This document shows positions 5,286 through 63,960 of a stretch of 64,000 nucleotides of DNA, piece by piece; the first letter of the stretch is position 1, and each line of letters starts with the position of its first letter. Position numbers and translations under genes: made by a program. The stretch is from Candidatus Saccharimonadales bacterium (GTDB taxonomy: Bacteria; Patescibacteriota; Saccharimonadia; Saccharimonadales; UBA10212): NCBI GenBank assembly GCA_038245195.1, contig JBBRSU010000001.1, forward strand, positions 128,121 to 192,120. Reading direction: 5' to 3'. The notes beneath the pieces are model-generated. The model was not told where the DNA came from and ran no database searches. It saw only the letters and a program-made list of their open reading frames with translations.

Positions 5286-6223
5286 TACGAGCGATTTACC
5301 TTATACCATTGGATAGTTTCGCGTAAGCCTTCCTCGAAAGTTGTACTAGATAAAAAGCCAAACTCTTTATTTGCCCGTGAAACATCGAGTTTTCGGCGTG
5401 GCTGGCCGTTAGGCTTAGAAGTATCCCACTTTATTTTGCCCTGAAAGCCGGTTTCTTTAACGATAATATTAACAAGATCCTTGATGTTTATCTCTGAGGA
5501 CGAACCTAAATTTACTGGGTCGCTTTTATCGTATTTTTCAGCGGCCAAGATAATCCCGTCAGCTGCATCCTCAACGTACAAAAACTCTCGGGACGCACTG
5601 CCGTCTCCCCAGACTTCTATTGCGCCTGCGTTATTATCGACAGCGTCCACGGATTTTTTTATAAGAGCAGGGATAACGTGCGAACTTTGCGGGTCAAAGT
5701 TATCGCCCGGTCCATATAGGTTAACGGGTAATAAGAAAATAGAATCAAAGCCGTATTCTTGGCGATAGCCCTGGCTCTGTACCAGCATCATTTTTTTGGC
5801 CAAGCCGTAAGGGGCGTTTGTTTCCTCTGGGTATCCATTCCATAAATCAACTTCTTTAAAGGGAACGGGAGTATATTTTGGGTAAGCACAAACAGTTCCC
5901 AGAGCTACAAACTTTGGGATTTTAAACTGCCGGGCTTGCTCCATCAGCTCAACGCCCATAATCAAATTTTCATAAAAGAATTTACCGGGGTGTTCGCGGT
6001 TAGCCCCAATCCCGCCAACTACAGCCGCCAAGTGAATGACCATGTCGCTGGGATTGTCGCTGTACATTTTTTTAATTTGGTCACGATCAGTAAGATCATA
6101 TTCGGCATGAGTTGGAGAAATTACAGTTGCTCCTAGATCTTTTAGTTTTTTGCAAACATAGGTTCCTAGAAAGCCGCTACCGCCAGTAACCAATATCTTC
6201 TTTTTATTCCAAAAAGTACTCAT
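5285..6223 (-). CDS. fcl: GDP-L-fucose synthase (GDP-4-keto-6-deoxy-D-mannose 3,5-epimerase/4-reductase)
   Basis: 312 aa. It has the Rossmann motif [11 protein letters not shown], plus [20 protein letters not shown] (YxxxK) and [10 protein letters not shown], all typical of Fcl/WcaG. Confidence 0.85.
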
Positions 6224-56769: not shown

Positions 56770-57456
56770 ATGACAAGAGACGAATTTATTAAGCATCTGC
56801 CCAGTCTAATAGACAATTATCAGCCACTCTCCGAGGCCAAAGACCGCATTTCTAATGTTGATCTTCTGATGATTGTTGGAGCGACTGGGGTAGGCAAAAC
56901 TAGCATTATAAAACGGCTGGGCGTACCGTTTGTAATAACCGATACCACTCGACCAATCCGACCGGATGAGATTAATGGTTCGGATTATAACTTTCGGACC
57001 GACTACGAGCAGCTTTCTAAAGAAATTAAAGAGCACGAGTTTGTCCAATTTAACATTTTCCCGACCGGCGATTTTTATGGTACCAAGGCCAGTTCTTACC
57101 CCGATCTGGGCTTTGCTGTCTACGCTATCGTATCTGGCATTATCCCGCAGATGCGTCAGTTGGGCTTTAACGACAGCATAACCGCCTTTATTGTCCCGCC
57201 AACCTTCGAAGAGTGGATGCATCGAATCGACCATGTGAACATTGAAAGAGACCAGTTAACCAAACGGCTCGAGGAAGCTATGGATTCATTTAGCTTTGCG
57301 CTAAGTGATCAGCGAACCCACTTTATTCTCAACGACGAAATCCCCGACGCAGCGCAGCAGGTTAAAGAGCTATTGAATGGCAAAATTAATAAATCTCGCG
57401 AGTCGGAAGCTCGAAAAGCCGCCGAAGCCAACTTTCAGCACCTTATAAAGCGTTAA
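56770..57456 (+). CDS. divergent guanylate-kinase-like P-loop kinase
   Basis: It has the P-loop GATGVGKTS, plus TDTTRPIRPDEINGSDYNFRT...GDFYGT, which parallels the Gmk pattern SxTTRxxRxGExxGxxYxF...GNxYGT. Confidence 0.55.
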   Translation: MTRDEFIKHLPSLIDNYQPLSEAKDRISNVDLLMIVGATGVGKTSIIKRLGVPFVITDTTRPIRPDEINGSDYNFRTDYEQLSKEIKEHEFVQFNIFPTGDFYGTKASSYPDLGFAVYAIVSGIIPQMRQLGFNDSITAFIVPPTFEEWMHRIDHVNIERDQLTKRLEEAMDSFSFALSDQRTHFILNDEIPDAAQQVKELLNGKINKSRESEARKAAEANFQHLIKR

Positions 57457-58035
57457 ATGATTATCCCGTCCAAGAAATCCCATGGGAAGCTTTTGATAAT
57501 CTCTGGGACTTCGGCGGGGGCTGGCAAAGATACACTTTTAAAGCTGTTTTTAAAAAAACATCCCGACTGGGTACATCCGCCGTCCACCACCACTAGACCG
57601 CCACGCTTTGGTGAAACCGAGGGTGTTGATTATTTTTTCATCGATAAGCAAACTTTCGAAGATAAGCTACGAAGAGACGAATTTTTAGAAGTCGATTTCC
57701 ACGCTGGAAACTGGTACGGAACACTCCAAAAGCCTATCCAGGACTTGCTGGATACCAATGCCAAACTTGTTTTACGTAAAGACGTCAATGGCTCTATTGA
57801 ACTTAAGAACAAAATTCCGCAAGCCATAGTGGTCTTTATCGATGTCGAAAGGCCCGAAGTGCTCGAACAAAGGATTAGGCAACGTGACTTGGATTCAGAA
57901 GCCGAAATCCAAGCCCGATTAAAACTGGCTCAGCAGGAACAAGCTTTAAAAAAACACTTTGACCATGTAGTCATCAACCACCACAACCGGCCAGAAGAGG
58001 CATTGGCTACCATCGAAAAGGCCGTTGGGCTTTAG
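57457..58035 (+). CDS. gmk: guanylate kinase
   Basis: ISGTSAGAGKDTL and STTTRPPRFGETEGVDYFFIDKQTFEDKLRRDEFLEVDFHAGNWYGT are canonical Gmk motifs. Confidence 0.85.
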   Translation: MIIPSKKSHGKLLIISGTSAGAGKDTLLKLFLKKHPDWVHPPSTTTRPPRFGETEGVDYFFIDKQTFEDKLRRDEFLEVDFHAGNWYGTLQKPIQDLLDTNAKLVLRKDVNGSIELKNKIPQAIVVFIDVERPEVLEQRIRQRDLDSEAEIQARLKLAQQEQALKKHFDHVVINHHNRPEEALATIEKAVGL

Positions 58036-58062
58036 CTGGCACTCTTGACATATGAGTGCTAA
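58036..58062 (+). promoter_or_regulatory. CIRCE operator 1 (HrcA binding site)
   Basis: ctGGCACTC-ttgacatat-GAGTGCTAA compares with the consensus TTAGCACTC-N9-GAGTGCTAA. It overlaps the -35 hexamer. Confidence 0.8.
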
Positions 58063-58074
58063 TTTAACTAAAAT
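58045..58074 (+). promoter_or_regulatory. sigma-70-type promoter of the hrcA operon
   Basis: The -35 is TTGACA (58045-58050). After an 18-nt spacer, the -10 is TAAAAT (58069-58074). Confidence 0.55.
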
Positions 58075-58083
58075 ATAAGTACT

Positions 58084-58110
58084 CTGGCAGTAATGTCATA
58101 GGAGTGCTAA
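58084..58110 (+). promoter_or_regulatory. CIRCE-like operator 2, abutting the hrcA start codon
   Basis: ctGGCAgTa-atgtcatag-GAGTGCTAA is followed immediately by ATG 58111. The right half is perfect; the left half has 2 further mismatches compared with operator 1. Confidence 0.6.
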
Positions 58111-58815
58111 ATGACAGAAAGACAAACCAAGATATTACAGGCGATTGTCGAGCAATATGCCGAAGTCGCCGCTCCAGTTGGTAGTAGTTTGCTAGCCAAA
58201 GCTTTTAGTGTGTCCAGTGCCACTGTTCGGGCCGATATGGCCGAATTAGAACGCTTAGGTTTTATAAATCAACCTCATACCAGTGCTGGTCGGATCCCAA
58301 CCGACAAGGGTTATCGGTTTTATGTTAACAATTTATCCGAAATCGCCGATAAGCCAGCCGAACGCCGAGCCGAGCGGGCCTTAGAAGCCCGGGTAACTAC
58401 CGGTGGCCATCCCGAACACACCATTCGCAACACTGTAGATACCCTAGTGGAGCTGACTCACAATCTAGGCCTGGCCACAATTGGACCACAACTTTATATG
58501 AGTGGCTTGTCTAACTTATTTGGCCAACCAGAATTTATCCAACCTGGCCAGGTCCAAGAAGTCGCCCGGCTTTTGGATAATCTACAGCCTTGGCTCAACG
58601 AAGCCGCCCCCAACGAACCGCTAAGCGTTTACATCGGTCGCGAGAACCCGATTGGTCGTAGTGCCGGTGCTAGCCTAATAATTAGCCGATTTCGCAGCCC
58701 ATTTTCCGATAGTAGTTACATTGGCGTGCTGGGCCCCACTCGCCAAAGCTATCGTGATGTAATGAATTTGGTCGGCCGAGCCGGCAAAGCCCTGGAGGAA
58801 ACTCTTTATGTCTAA
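58111..58815 (+). CDS. hrcA: heat-inducible transcription repressor HrcA (short form, 234 aa)
   Basis: MTERQTKILQAIVEQYAEVAAPVGSSLLAKAFSVSSATVRADMAELERLGFINQPHTSAGRIPTDKGYRFYVN matches the HrcA wHTH N-terminus. CIRCE elements lie upstream. Confidence 0.8.
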   Translation: MTERQTKILQAIVEQYAEVAAPVGSSLLAKAFSVSSATVRADMAELERLGFINQPHTSAGRIPTDKGYRFYVNNLSEIADKPAERRAERALEARVTTGGHPEHTIRNTVDTLVELTHNLGLATIGPQLYMSGLSNLFGQPEFIQPGQVQEVARLLDNLQPWLNEAAPNEPLSVYIGRENPIGRSAGASLIISRFRSPFSDSSYIGVLGPTRQSYRDVMNLVGRAGKALEETLYV

Positions 58816-59065
58816 TTCTGACAGATTACAATCTTTTATAGGCGATAAAGAATTAAAACCTGCTTATGACTACTATGGGGCTGGATTTTATGAACAAGTC
58901 GGCAGTAACTCAGGAATACTTAAACGTGTACAAGAGGTAAATGATTACATTGAAACTTGCTTGCATGTGTTTGGGGTTAGTGAACTGTTTGAACTACCAG
59001 GAGAATTACAGGATGAAATAAATAGGCTAGCGGTTATAGATCTAATGGAGTTTATGGATGACTAA
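58808..59065 (+). CDS. hypothetical acidic small protein embedded between hrcA and grpE
   Basis: 85 aa. It overlaps both hrcA (58808-58815) and grpE (59058-59065) by 8 nt. Confidence 0.5.
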   Translation: MSNSDRLQSFIGDKELKPAYDYYGAGFYEQVGSNSGILKRVQEVNDYIETCLHVFGVSELFELPGELQDEINRLAVIDLMEFMDD

Positions 59066-59522
59066 GAAACCAACCCTAAAAGAACTAGAGCAAAAAGTCG
59101 GTGAGTTAACCGAAGCCCTACAGCGCGAGCGGGCTGATGCTCAAAATTTGCGCCGTCGAACCGAAGAAGACAAAGCTCGGCTGGGAGGATTCTATAAGGC
59201 CATGGTCGTCCAAGAGCTTCTACCGGCTTTAGATAATTTAGAGAGGTCAATGTTGCATACCCCTAAAGAATTACATGACAACGACTATGTTAAAGGTGTT
59301 CAAGGAGTAATAAAACAGTTCGATCAAAGTTTTGCTCAGCTTGGGGTTAAGCGCATCAAAACCGTTGGTGAGGTTTTTGACCCCAGACTGCACGAAGCAG
59401 TACACATGGAAGAAGGTGACGGAACGGTTGAAGTTGTTTGCGAGGAACTTCAACCGGGTTACTTACTGGGCGACGAAGTTATTCGCCACGCCATGGTCAA
59501 AGTAAAAATGGAGAAAAAATAA
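59058..59522 (+). CDS. grpE: nucleotide exchange factor GrpE
   Basis: It has a coiled-coil N-terminus. LLPALDNLERS...FDPRLHEAV...GYLLGDEVIRHAMVKV are GrpE motifs. Confidence 0.85.
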   Translation: MTKKPTLKELEQKVGELTEALQRERADAQNLRRRTEEDKARLGGFYKAMVVQELLPALDNLERSMLHTPKELHDNDYVKGVQGVIKQFDQSFAQLGVKRIKTVGEVFDPRLHEAVHMEEGDGTVEVVCEELQPGYLLGDEVIRHAMVKVKMEKK

Positions 59523-59743
59523 TGGCTAAATCATCAGAAAACTTCGAGTTTTTTATTGATCCTCCGGTAAATATAAGGGGCGGCCAGGTAAATCTTCAGG
59601 AACTAAGCAGTTCACAAATTATGGAAATATATGAAAGGGACAAAAGAATGATTTATTTTTTTGAGAGAGCTCGTGAACGTGAAGCAGTCGAAGAAGCAGA
59701 ACAAATTTTAAGTGAACAAATTCAAACTAAAGAGGAGGAATAA
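59522..59743 (+). CDS. hypothetical small acidic protein between grpE and dnaK
   Basis: 73 aa from the ATG at 59522, which overlaps the grpE stop as TAATG ([15 protein letters not shown]...). The track's longer start at 59438 would overlap grpE out of frame. Confidence 0.4.
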
Positions 59744-59745
59744 TT

Positions 59746-61671
59746 ATGGCAAAAATAATTGGAATAGATCTAGGAACAACTAACAGTGCTATGGCGGTGA
59801 TGCAGTCCGGCAAGCCGGAAATCATCGCTAACAGTGAAGGTAACCGCACTACGCCCAGCGTAGTAGCTATTAATAAGAACGACGAACGTTTGGTCGGCCA
59901 AGTGGCCAATCGACAGCGCGTAACTAACCCAACTAACACAATTTTTGGTGTAAAACGTTTAATTGGTCGCAAATTCGATGACGAAGAGGTCCAGCGTGAC
60001 CTAAAGCTAATGCCATACAAAATCGTCAAAGCCGGCAGTGGCGTAAAAGTTGAAATGGCTGGCAAAGAGTACAGCCCTGAAGAAGTTAGTGGCATGATTT
60101 TAAGCAAATTAAAAGCTGACGCCGAAGCCTTTCTGGGCGAGCCGGTCACCGAAGCTGTAATAACCGTGCCAGCCTATTTCGATGACGGACAGCGCCAAGC
60201 CACCAAAGATGCCGGAAAAATTGCTGGTTTGGAGGTTAAGCGAATTATCAACGAACCAACTGCCGCAGCACTAGCCTACGGTTTAGATAAAGGCAAGGAA
60301 GAAAAAATCGCCGTATTTGACCTTGGCGGCGGAACTTTTGACGTATCAATCCTGCAACTGGGAGACGGCGTTTTTGAGGTTTTAAGCACCAACGGCGATA
60401 CCCATCTAGGCGGCGAAGATTTTGATATGCGGATCGTGAACCATTTCGTAGAACAATTTAAAAATCAATCCGGCATAGAAGTCAAAGACGACAAAGCCGC
60501 CATGCAACGGCTCAAAGAAGAGGCCGAGAAAGCCAAAAAAGAGCTATCAACTACAGAGGTAGCAGATATTAATCTGCCGTTTCTAACCGCCGATGCCGAT
60601 GGCCCTAAGCACTTTGAATACAAGCTAACTCGGGCCAAACTGATCGAGCTGGTACAGGACTTAATCGATAAAACGGCTGTTCCTTGCGAGAAAGCTATTA
60701 AAGACGCCAAACTATCAGCATCAGATATTAATGAAATTGTACTAGTTGGCGGCATGACTCGCATGCCATCGGTTGTCGAAAAAGTTAAGCAAATTTTCGG
60801 CAAAGACCCGCTTCAAGGTGTTAATCCGGATGAAGTTGTGGCCGTAGGTGCTGCTATACAAGGTGGCGTACTCCAGGGCGATGTCAAAGATGTACTACTG
60901 CTAGACGTGACCCCACTCAGCTTAGGCATTGAGACACTTGGTAGCGTAACTACCAAGCTAATCGAGCGTAATACCACCATACCAACAAGTAAGAATGAGG
61001 TATTTTCTACGGCGGCTGATAATCAAAACAGCGTCGAAATCCACGTTTTACAGGGTGAGCGAGAAATGTCAGCTGACAACAAGTCTCTCGGCCGGTTTGT
61101 ACTTGACGGCATCCCGCCTGCGCCCCGCGGCGTACCTCAGATCGAGGTTACCTTTAACATCGACGCAAACGGCATCCTAAATGTTGGTGCTAAAGACAAA
61201 GGCACCGGTAAAGAGCAGAGTATTACCATTCAAGGCAGCGGCAACCTAGATAAAGCCGAAGTTGAGAAAGCTGCTAAAGATGCCGAAGTCCACGCCGAAG
61301 AAGACAAGAAAAAACGTGAGGTGATCGAGGCCAAAAACACACTGGAAAACGCAGTTTACCAAGCTGGGAAAATGAAGACCGAATACAAGGACAAGCTGGC
61401 CGAAGAGGATGTAAAAACTCTCGACGAAGCAGTGGCTGAAGCAAAAACCCATCTAGAAGCCACCGATAAGGACGAGCTAGAAAAAGCCGCTAAGGAACTC
61501 AGCGACAAACTAATGCCAATTGGTGCCAAGATGTACGAAGCCGCCCAGGCCGAAGGCAAGCCGGCCGAGAACTCAACCCAACCTGACGACAAGAAAAAGT
61601 CCGACAAAGACGAACCCATCGAAGGCGAAGTCGTCGATGACACATCCGACAAGGACAAGAAGGAAGACTAA
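59746..61671 (+). CDS. dnaK: molecular chaperone DnaK (Hsp70)
   Basis: [21 protein letters not shown] and [10 protein letters not shown] are Hsp70 signatures. The RBS is aaagaggagg. Confidence 0.97.
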
Positions 61672-61829
61672 TGAAACCGGCTAACTACCTGCGCTATGTG
61701 CTGTTACCACTTGTGGCCATAGCCGCAGGCGTTAAGCTTGGCATAAAATACGCCCAAGATAATTATGTTGTGAAGGACAAGAAGTTCATTGAAGGCCAAG
61801 TTAAGTCAAATATAAGGGATAATAAGTAA
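61671..61829 (+). CDS. candidate 52-aa membrane peptide overlapping the dnaK stop
   Basis: From my own translation: [52 protein letters not shown]. The ATG overlaps the dnaK TAA as TAATG. It is below the ORF-track cutoff. Confidence 0.35.
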   Translation: MKPANYLRYVLLPLVAIAAGVKLGIKYAQDNYVVKDKKFIEGQVKSNIRDNK

Positions 61830-61842
61830 TATAAGGTTAATT

Positions 61843-62262
61843 ATGGCGAACAGAATTACTAGTGGTGAACCAGACGGAAGTCTCGTAAATGAACAGGTAC
61901 CTATGATTTCAATTAACGAAATGATTCAGGAGTTACTAGGCTACAATATTGATTCGATTTCGGAAGCTGAGAGTCGGCAGTTCAAATTAAATAAAACCCT
62001 TTGGCAAAGGGAAACACACTCTAAATTAGGCGAGCACGTTTTCTTATCGTTTAACGACCATAGTGAGAGTAAGCATTTAGTTCCCGCTCAGTACTTCATC
62101 CAGGTTTACGGAATACAACACTCCAAAAACAACCCCCAGATAATTGACGATATACGCTGGACCGAACACGATGACCCTACAAAACTATTTGCAGATAATT
62201 TAGCTCGGATAGAGGAGCTACTTGGACTATTTAAGACTGTAGAGCCATCCAACAATGGCTAA
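61843..62262 (+). CDS. hypothetical protein between dnaK and dnaJ
   Basis: 139 aa. It overlaps the dnaJ start by 8 nt. No family recognised. Confidence 0.5.
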
Positions 62263-63346
62263 GCGGGATTATTACGAAGTATTAGGGGTAAGCAAAAGTG
62301 CCAGTGCTGACGAGCTTAAAAAAGCTTATCGGCGCAAAGCCGTGGATTCGCACCCCGACAGGGGCGGTGACGAAGCCAAATTCAAAGAAGTTAACGAAGC
62401 CTACGAAGTTCTAAAAGACACCAGTAAACGCCAGCGTTATGACCAATTTGGGCACGCTGGAGTTGGTAGTAGTGCGGCCAGCGACGGCAATCCGTTTGGT
62501 GGCTATGGTAGCAGTGCTCAAGACTTTAGCTTCGATTTCGGCGATTTAGGACTAGGTGATATCTTTGGTAGTTTCTTTGGCAATGAAATGGGCGGTGGCC
62601 GACGCGGCCAAAAAAGCCGTGGTCAAGACGTAGAGACCAATGTTGAAATTTCTTTTGAACAAGCCGTCTTTGGCACCGAAATCGATTTAAGCCTAACCAT
62701 GCAGGATGTTTGCAGCCATTGCTCGGGCACAACCGTCGAGCCTGGTTATGATATGAAAACTTGCGATAACTGCAAAGGTAGTGGCCAAATTACTAATGTA
62801 ATGCGAACGGTTTTTGGAAATATTCAGCAGGCCGCACCGTGCCCCAAATGTCAAGCTAGTGGCCGTATACCGGAAAAAGTCTGCTCGGTCTGCAACGGAA
62901 AGGGTACAGAGCGACGCAACCAAAAAGTTGGCTTAAAAATTCCGGCCGGTGTCGATGATGGAGCCACGATTCGTTTGCGCGAGCATGGCGAAGCCATTGC
63001 TCACGGCCCCAAGGGTGATTTATATGTAAATATTCGGGTCAAATCACACAAAAAATTCACTCGTGAAGGCGATTTAATTCTGTCCAGTGAGCACATCAGT
63101 ATGGTTGATGCCGCTTTGGGCACCGAAATCGAAATTAATACAGTCGATGGCCCAGTGCGCATGAAAGTCCCGGCCGGCACCCAAAGCGGCACCGACTTTA
63201 AGCTATCTGGCCACGGGGTTACTCACCTAAATAAAAACAGCCGCGGCGCCCATATTGTAACTGTCGCAGTTGACACTCCCAGTAGGCTAAATCGCTCCCA
63301 AAGAAGCATCCTAGAATCCTTCAAAGATACTCAACCCAACAGCTAG
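62255..63346 (+). CDS. dnaJ: molecular chaperone DnaJ (Hsp40, type I)
   Basis: It has a J domain (DYYEVLGV...HPDRGGD), a G/F region and four CxxCxGxG zinc-finger repeats ([31 protein letters not shown]). Confidence 0.95.
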
Positions 63347-63960
63347 TCTTCAAAGCTCTGCTTGAACATCACAATTGTAAAATCTTTTCTAAGGTATTGG
63401 GTTTTTAATATCACACGCGGGCACATACTTTTACAAAATTCGAAAATTTCTTGGGCATCGGCATAAGCAATCAATGAATCGTGACGCAGAGGTTTTAGCC
63501 CCCCGGCCATATTGAAAGCCAGAACTTCCCCGGTTTGTTCATAAAGGGCACTAATCATCTTTTTACGTTCGTCTAGCCAACCTTCAACGTTGCCATTCAT
63601 CACGCCGGAGCTTAGCACCACATCAAACATTCCCAAGGACTTTTTAAAAGGGTCGTAGATCTTAAAATTATGGCCCTCGTATCTTTGCTTGGCGATTTTT
63701 ATAAAATCTGGGCTTTTATCAACTCCCAAATATGTAAAATTGGTGGCTTTTGCATATAGATAGGGTAGTAAATCACCCATACCACAGCCGGCATCTAAAA
63801 TACTCTTACCTTCAACCGGCACATCTTTAACCAGCTCTCGAAATCGCAAGGCCATTGAGCGATAATCCCACCACAGCAATCCCTTCGGACCCGGTCCATA
63901 TTGCTTTAAGCTGTGAGTATAATCTTCACTCGAGGGATACGGATTAAAAATGCTCATCAA
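63343..63960 (-). CDS. class I SAM-dependent methyltransferase
   Basis: [16 protein letters not shown] (motif I) and [11 protein letters not shown] (motif II/III) identify it. It is convergent with dnaJ and overlaps it by 4 nt. Confidence 0.7.

Follow-up and report, generated by a model that had tools for sequence, protein, structure and literature searches.

The class I heat-shock operon of Bacillus, Clostridium and other Gram-positive bacteria carries hrcA, grpE, dnaK and dnaJ, in this order, with a CIRCE element (an inverted repeat controlling chaperone expression) that overlaps a σ70 promoter. Lineage-specific extra open reading frames (ORFs) are known from the dnaK operons of other bacteria. 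The gene content and the spacing of the dnaK/dnaJ operon differ between species (PMC12077118). Here, we analysed the hrcA-grpE-dnaK-dnaJ locus found in a 64-kb stretch of DNA from Candidatus Saccharimonadales bacterium (TM7/Patescibacteria; hereafter, the stretch is called the window, and positions are window coordinates unless the name of a related locus, such as L008, goes with them). The locus has the same four genes in the same order, and a CIRCE overlapping a σ70-type promoter, but it differs from the class I operon by coupled extra ORFs between every core pair, at positions that are hypervariable across the order, and by a HrcA of 234 amino acids (aa). We favour, with moderate confidence, the view that the operon junctions are slots for small genes, in which two of the extra ORFs, tm52 and orf139, are residents, and the other two, orf85 and orf73, are passengers brought in via recombination anchored in the flanking chaperone genes.

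The four ORFs are on the same strand as hrcA, grpE, dnaK and dnaJ (58111-63346, forward strand), with which they are interleaved, and both the ORF map and the sequence place them exactly where an earlier, sequence-only reading of the window had, with the same junctions. Neighbouring genes either overlap or lie at most 13 nt apart: hrcA (58111-58815) overlaps orf85 (58808-59065) by 8 nt (ATGTCTAA), orf85 overlaps grpE (59058-59522), also by 8 nt (ATGACTAA), grpE and orf73 (59522-59743) meet at TAATG, 2 nt separate orf73 from dnaK (59746-61671), dnaK and tm52 (61671-61829) again meet at TAATG, tm52 and orf139 (61843-62262) are 13 nt apart, and orf139 overlaps dnaJ (62255-63346) by 8 nt (ATGGCTAA). 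The span of 58036-63346 that had been given for the operon stands, except that its first part, 58036-58110, is regulatory and not coding, the start of hrcA being at 58111. Shine-Dalgarno (SD)-like motifs precede most cistrons (GGAGGA for orf85, GGAG for grpE and orf73, GAGGAGGA for dnaK); dnaJ has no obvious SD and its start codon sits within the orf139 stop. Since most junctions in a rough ORF map of the window measure 10-100 nt, and a -8 overlap was seen only once outside the operon, such packing is unusual for this genome.

To place the locus among its relatives, we used GrpE-anchored scans, which yielded 80 genomes of species representatives (almost all with the label Saccharimonadales or Saccharibacteria) and 80 metagenome contigs; further contigs were added through exact-protein look-ups, and 169 related loci were compared. 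The order hrcA-grpE-dnaK-dnaJ is kept in every one of them. Taking a gap of 30 nt or less as empty, the hrcA-grpE gap (-8 to 1268 nt) is empty in 53 of 151 loci, the grpE-dnaK gap (-1 to 4809 nt) in 7 of 139 and the dnaK-dnaJ gap (6 to 2236 nt) in 1 of 95. Inserts of at least 200 nt are present in 89% of the grpE-dnaK and 84% of the dnaK-dnaJ gaps, as compared with 20% and 45% of loci at two control junctions upstream, g53378-lepA and lepA-gmk1, respectively. The gmk1-hrcA interval is itself variable, as the second of two guanylate-kinase-like genes located there in the window (see below) was found in only some relatives. The operon is special only in part: these genomes commonly accept inserts between core genes, and among the junctions sampled those of the chaperone operon are filled most often. 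Over 247 occupied gaps of relatives (a non-redundant set), the share of the length covered by ORFs is 85% on the plus strand, 55% on the minus strand and 46% in shuffled sequences. The junctions made by slot ORFs are tight whatever the ORF: of 540, 72% either overlap or leave no more than 15 nt free, and -8 is the commonest type. Tight coupling thus goes with any slot content in general; the translational coupling deduced earlier for the window ORFs holds, yet gap ORFs throughout the clade all follow the same rule.

What fills the slots changes rapidly. Of 494 slot ORFs, 266 were singletons in phmmer comparisons, and all 68 multi-member clusters are restricted to one slot. The idea of hidden homology between slot families was rejected, hhalign probabilities being below 2% for the clusters tested, so that a single fast-evolving family in each slot is not supported. 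Among 150 slot ORFs from other species, about 80% have no Pfam domain; a pooled scan of the 150 gave CutA1 (9), VKOR (5), NYN (5) and thioredoxin/DsbD-type domains, and the slots of other species also hold putatively secreted proteins of 300-926 aa. The GC content at third codon positions (GC3) of slot ORFs lies below that of the other genes of the same locus in 94 of 115 loci (p = 8e-14).

The large proteins of 300-926 aa occupy the grpE-dnaK slot and split the operon by several kb in L035 (7490-10270), L049 (6555-10761), L070 (6760-10565), L076 (7518-9290) and L052 (6855-8734). Their N-terminal hydrophobic segments and repetitive Gly/Ser/Thr-rich regions give them the look of secreted or surface-located proteins. 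The pooled Pfam scan also returned BNR, Sortilin-Vps10, PKD and polysaccharide-lyase-14 domains, which it did not assign to particular ORFs. Multi-member families of about 107, 204 and 200 aa were seen in the dnaK-dnaJ slot only, in many loci (for example, L007 9171-9494, L009 9475-10083 and L017 9622-10218); judging from sizes and member counts, the CutA1, VKOR, NYN and thioredoxin/DsbD-type domains would belong to these clusters and, if this matching is right, some lineages may have drawn genes for oxidative folding into the chaperone operon.

In the dnaK-dnaJ gap, tm52 and orf139 are stable residents in one Saccharimonadales subclade. tm52 encodes a 52-aa, single-pass membrane microprotein, with one hydrophobic helix (hydropathy peak of 2.04 at residues 9-25) followed by a conserved tail, GxKxGIKYAxDHYVSKDRKFIE, of which the part KYAxDHYVSKDRKFIE is almost invariant in the family. 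All of its 28 homologs lie in the dnaK-dnaJ gap, 16 of them beginning -1 to +2 nt from the dnaK stop, and the ratio of nonsynonymous to synonymous substitution rates (dN/dS) against homologs is 0.07-0.23. orf139 codes for a predicted soluble α+β protein of a tiny family (120-148 aa) with the motif ETHSKxGEHxF..YNxH, in which H59, G63, H65, N71 and W106 are invariant and H73 nearly so. A profile search of 1.84 billion proteins gave nine representatives of this family, and no homolog was found among the 80 species-representative genomes; all eight contexts examined read dnaK-(51/52-aa ORF)-orf139-(sometimes one more ORF)-dnaJ. The AlphaFold2 (AF2) model of orf139 (predicted local distance difference test score, pLDDT, of 72, and 80-91 in the core) has a four-stranded sheet plus helices. 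Both ORFs have an ordinary GC3 (0.50 for tm52, 0.42 for orf139), both are under purifying selection, and both keep their position beside the same core gene in divergent genomes (28 loci and eight of eight contexts, respectively). The start context of orf139 (61838-61857, TAATTATGGCGAACAGAATT) is 85% identical (17/20 nt; repeat D11) to that of dnaK (59741-59760, TAATTATGGCAAAAATAATT), a likeness that is probably due to chance or to a common initiation context.

orf85 and orf73 show another pattern. orf85 encodes an acidic protein (net charge -11), predicted to be all-helical (AF2 pLDDT of 68.5, with no fold match), whose family, c9, has five to six members, all in the hrcA-grpE gap: homologs were found in L004, L005, L095 and L098, and a partial one in L093. 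On a tree of HrcA+GrpE+DnaK these are scattered among relatives in which the slot is empty; in close relatives without orf85, hrcA overlaps grpE directly. orf73, in the grpE-dnaK gap, is an acidic near-orphan whose final codons encode the dnaK SD (GAGGAGGA). It occurs in only one other contig, and a search of 5.8 billion protein clusters matched only orf73 itself and P0005 (92% identity); at its place, sister genomes have unrelated ORFs of 76-143 aa. Against its one homolog, orf73 has a dN/dS of 0.15, and 8 of 14 differences are synonymous as opposed to the 19% expected under neutrality (p = 0.0015). Among the 75 ORFs of the window map (mean GC3 of 0.44, SD 0.08), orf85 ranks last with 0.27, and orf73, which is not part of that map, is lower still (0.26). 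Conservation of position is patchy for orf85 and absent for orf73. Together, orf85 and orf73 look like AT-shifted, acidic, helical and quickly replaced passengers that would have been brought by recombination.

These patterns bear on the proposal that each of the four ORFs is a dedicated co-chaperone, client adaptor or regulator peculiar to the lineage, kept at fixed stoichiometry with HrcA, GrpE, DnaK and DnaJ. The tight coupling of the four ORFs within the operon speaks for it, as do the conserved positions of tm52 and orf139 and the small size, acidic character and place beside hrcA of orf85 and of most other ORFs in the hrcA-grpE slot. There is also a precedent in Chlamydia, whose HrcA regulon includes a lineage-specific protein, HagF, which binds HrcA and acts as an anti-repressor (PMC12154930). 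However, many close relatives do without orf85, orf73 has the single homolog mentioned above, the same slot holds unrelated ORFs in sister genomes, and the slots of other species contain CutA1, VKOR, NYN and large, putatively secreted proteins. Moreover, family searches with the four ORFs, and fold searches with orf139 and orf85, found no recognisable domain or fold of a DnaK co-chaperone or modulator (for example, J-domain proteins, GrpE, CbpM or small Hsps). More generally, orf85, orf73, tm52 and orf139 had no significant match in Pfam, NCBIfam, PHROGs or PADLOC; the members of the orf139 family, scanned one by one against Pfam, gave nothing, and the PDB had no match by fold for orf139 or orf85, nor by sequence profile for the orf139 family. 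As an account of all four ORFs the proposal is unlikely. For tm52 and orf139 alone, a co-chaperone reading is plausible, and their synteny makes it most likely that they work with, or depend on, DnaK/DnaJ. Thus, of the earlier suggestion, the part that concerns tm52 and orf139 survives, as an association through position, and so does the synteny expected of them, whereas for orf85, with its patchy occurrence, and for orf73, with its one other contig, the suggestion fails the conservation test that came with it.

All four extra ORFs are genuine coding sequences. Their per-codon coding log-likelihood is 0.23-0.28 in frame and negative in both other frames, the mean for window genes being 0.215 ± 0.063, and in the families of orf139 and orf85 invariant motifs are retained although synonymous sites are saturated. 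The lack of database families would fit chance open frames in non-coding spacers, but these coding statistics, the homologs with dN/dS below 1 and the slot coverage of 85% against 46% contradict that explanation, which we regard as extremely improbable. The check for coding selection that accompanied the sequence-only reading has the same outcome: with dN/dS of 0.07-0.23 for tm52 and 0.15 for orf73, a non-coding spacer is not supported. Another possibility is that the ORFs are translated spacers, which keep ribosomes on the mRNA (coupling, protection from polarity) while the peptides themselves are functionless and drift. The extreme turnover, with singletons making up 266 of the 494 slot ORFs, is in line with this, as are the AT-shifted composition and the way in which the ORFs fill exactly the interval between the stop upstream of them and the SD and start that come next downstream. 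It is at odds, however, with the purifying selection on amino acids in orf73 and tm52, with the invariant motifs of orf139, tm52 and the orf85 family, and with an in-frame codon usage like that of normal genes, and we give it a low probability. RNA elements in the gaps were also considered and rejected, there being no Rfam match with E below 0.05.

How ORFs may have entered the slots can be approached by comparing filled with empty junctions. Empty hrcA-grpE sites in relatives read ...CTTTATGTCTAAGAAACC..., in which ATG is the grpE start and TAA the hrcA stop; the window has the same ATGTCTAA, but there its ATG opens orf85 (MS...), and grpE starts anew at ATGACTAA. At empty grpE-dnaK sites, grpE and dnaK are joined by TAATG (...TAATGGCTAAAATTATTGG); in the window, TAATGGCTAAA opens orf73, which starts with MAK, as does DnaK, and dnaK restarts at ATGGCAAAA after a new SD. 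Clearer cases were found in other loci. In L081 (2440-2700), a 76-aa ORF lies between the two copies of a 24-bp direct repeat (one mismatch) that combines the 3' end of grpE with TAATGAAC; because the repeat contains this 3' end, the ORF terminates in GrpE's own C-terminal residues, KMEKK. In L025, a perfect 19-bp direct repeat of the hrcA 3' end, GGAGGCGATGTATGTCTGA (5500-5518 and 5767-5785), flanks an 84-aa ORF with long hydrophobic stretches. In L008 (10260-10343 and 10878-10997; also in L113), two relic dnaJ 5' ends, one reading LAKRDYYP..., precede the true dnaJ, each behind an ORF insertion, as if left by one insertion after another. The flanking repeats, of 8-24 bp, consist of junction sequence. 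A further indication comes from orf73, which is 94% identical at the nucleotide level between the window and L085, with a sharp left boundary at the TAATG start and unrelated sequence upstream. At third positions, orf73 shows 8 differences in 74, and the neighbouring dnaK 59 in 173, so that orf73 has about a third of the divergence of dnaK (Fisher test on synonymous differences, p = 2e-4), which suggests that the cassette was exchanged after the two dnaK alleles split. The features of a hot-spot model, namely a tract whose divergence is unlike that of its flank, a sharp boundary and slot specificity, are thus all seen here; support for exchange through homology is limited in that the window and L085 form the one informative pair.

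The direct repeats of 19-24 bp around single ORFs in L081 and L025, the 8-nt ATGnCTAA repeats (one mismatch) that bracket orf85 and the modular character of the ORF units could also suggest that the cassettes were moved by a dedicated element, either a transposon or miniature inverted-repeat transposable element (MITE) that duplicates its target site, or a site-specific recombinase like that of integrons. Target-site duplications made by transposases are typically shorter than 19-24 bp, which counts against such an element. In addition, the window ORFs are not bounded by terminal inverted repeats, the junctions have no repeat or attC-like element in common, no transposase or integrase domain was detected in the 150 slot ORFs, and each family is kept to one slot, as fits homology-anchored exchange and not transposition; we consider a dedicated element quite improbable. 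An origin from a MITE or insertion sequence was rejected, given the lack of terminal inverted repeats and of a second copy in the window, in which no paralogs of any of the four ORFs were found elsewhere. Saccharibacteria are naturally competent and integrate DNA via homology arms of about 1 kb (PMC10633639); together with slot specificity and conserved flanks, this points to homology-anchored recombination and not to transposition.

The reading we favour may then be put as follows. The three internal junctions would hold small, same-strand, translationally coupled genes, and orf85 would have reached the hrcA-grpE slot, and orf73 the grpE-dnaK slot, through recombination that had its anchors in the conserved chaperone genes on either side. 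The incoming ORF would take over the start codon of the displaced gene and supply a new SD and a new stop/start junction for that gene, so that ribosome flow through the essential operon would be preserved. Tight junctions would then be a condition for survival in a slot, and not a sign of stoichiometric partnership. A bolder version, possible but rather doubtful in our opinion, makes the stop/start junctions of the Saccharimonadales operon an integrase-free platform for gene capture and the operon a lineage-wide nursery, where new small proteins are put on display and in which a few, tm52 and orf139, became fixed as novel partners of DnaK/DnaJ. Promoterless, single-ORF cassettes would be inserted a few nt past the start codon of the next conserved gene by short-homology, anchor-assisted recombination; the insertion would duplicate the junction, and the captured ORF would in this way inherit a ribosome-binding site, a start codon, heat-shock control and translational coupling.

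Several points weigh against recombination as the route, and against the division into residents and passengers. The 8-9-nt repeats at orf85 and orf73 are weak evidence because the junction type (ATGnnTAA, or a MAK start) largely forces them, and these duplications could be convergent. Across 158 gaps and 234 ORFs, flank repeats were not enriched overall (mean best-match score of 5.9, against 5.7 in controls); a general target-site-duplication hypothesis was rejected on this ground, the individual clear cases being kept, and the insertion route consequently rests on a handful of young events. That only recent events retain the flanking-repeat signature would be expected. The comparison of orf73 is based on a single contig of 811 bp. 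orf85 could be patchy because it was gained once, long ago, and then repeatedly and precisely lost, with fast divergence, instead of having been transferred, and low GC3 could reflect weak selection and not a foreign origin. Insertions occur at syntenic control junctions too (20-65%), and what is seen in the chaperone operon may hold for the whole genome. Finally, neither an experiment nor structural or sequence similarity links tm52 or orf139 to chaperone function, and their conserved synteny could be a matter of slot stability alone.

The remaining features of the locus are those of a class I heat-shock operon, presumably under HrcA/CIRCE control, as judged from its sequence. The Pfam domains of HrcA, GrpE, Hsp70 and type I DnaJ all score above gathering thresholds, and the genes stand on one strand in the class I order: hrcA (HrcA, 7e-17, and HrcA_DNA-bdg), grpE (GrpE, 8.6e-40), dnaK (HSP70, 1e-261) and dnaJ, which codes for a full type I DnaJ with J domain, zinc-finger domain (CxxCxGxG) and C-terminal domain. 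Searching with the CIRCE consensus TTAGCACTC-N9-GAGTGCTAA, we found a single match in the window (58036-58062, forward strand; CTGGCACTC-N9-GAGTGCTAA), with two mismatches and a chance expectation of 0.01. It overlaps the -35 hexamer of a σ70-type promoter, TTGACA-18-TAAAAT (58045-58074, forward strand; 11/12 matches), the top promoter-like site within 57800-63600. Within the operon, neither terminator-like sites on the plus strand nor a strong internal promoter was found. A degenerate second CIRCE-like copy (58084-58110, forward strand; CTGGCAGTA-N9-GAGTGCTAA), 81% identical to the first (repeat D3), covers the SD of hrcA and abuts its ATG; the two 27-nt copies, 48 nt apart upstream of hrcA, may constitute a dual operator. 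HrcA is typically about 340 aa long, and the short form of 234 aa encoded here aligns with Pfam HrcA_C at profile positions 107-215 only. This short form matches related loci over almost its full length, with 73-93% identity in nearly all loci that gave a match.

Directly upstream of the operon are two guanylate-kinase-like genes (56770-57456 and 57457-58035), with a 0-nt gap between them; the second encodes a 192-aa protein (Pfam Guanylate_kin, 9.5e-33). On the 3' side of dnaJ, a conserved neighbourhood, with variable insertions of its own, was seen in L081 (9034-11304), L086, L089 and L172, in the order convergent methyltransferase, GATase, RimK, RimB-like protein and second RimK (ATP-grasp) gene.

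The operon type is known, but we found no description, in the literature searched, of hypervariable, slot-specific, coupled small ORFs in the chaperone operon of Saccharimonadales, or of the tm52 and orf139 families. The searches returned no work joining Saccharibacteria with dnaK, grpE and hrcA, and, for small ORFs within dnaK operons, only general heat-shock papers. As the DnaK operon is among the most conserved bacterial gene clusters, internal junctions that rank with the most variable positions sampled at the locus are unexpected; the gaps of the chaperone operon appear as hot spots of small-gene turnover and offer a natural system in which to study how new small genes enter an essential, coupled operon without breaking it. 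There is also a caution for annotation, in that tight coupling to core genes is by itself no proof of a common function. The families of tm52 and orf139 are known from no genomic place other than the dnaK-dnaJ interval, and can on this account be tested as candidate proteostasis factors peculiar to Patescibacteria. Saccharibacteria are now genetically manipulable (PMC10633639), so that the predictions can be tested in cultured relatives. For the residents, the co-chaperone idea remains plausible, and HagF shows that clade-specific proteins of an HrcA regulon can regulate the system (PMC12154930).

HagF resembles the window ORFs in being clade-restricted, in having no known domain, in its co-regulation with hrcA-grpE-dnaK and in its reduced-genome host; it differs in that its gene is located elsewhere, behind a CIRCE of its own, in that the whole of its clade has kept it, whereas orf85 is patchy, and in that it has been tested experimentally. 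No sequence relationship between HagF and the window ORFs was seen, and by analogy it might serve as a model for a role of orf85, which lies beside hrcA, or of tm52/orf139. The dnaK-dnaJ region of enterobacteria, with the small RNA tpke11, likewise has an unusually long and functionally loaded spacer (PMC12077118), but the spacer here is protein-coding, and Rfam gave no match below an E of 0.05. Integron cassette arrays are similar in their promoterless, single-ORF units, which have one orientation, lie behind an upstream promoter and turn over rapidly, but differ by their integrase and recombination sites, as no integrase was found in the 150 slot ORFs and no attC/attI or common recombination site was detected. 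Finally, chromosomal accessory-gene hot spots at core-gene junctions, and homology-facilitated illegitimate recombination following natural transformation, share with this locus the conserved flanks and the variable, slot-specific and AT-shifted content, and also a tract less diverged than its flank and the duplicated 5' end of the downstream gene. Here, unlike in those systems, the slots are within an essential operon and, by a route that we infer, have received single small ORFs that fit its stop/start junctions.

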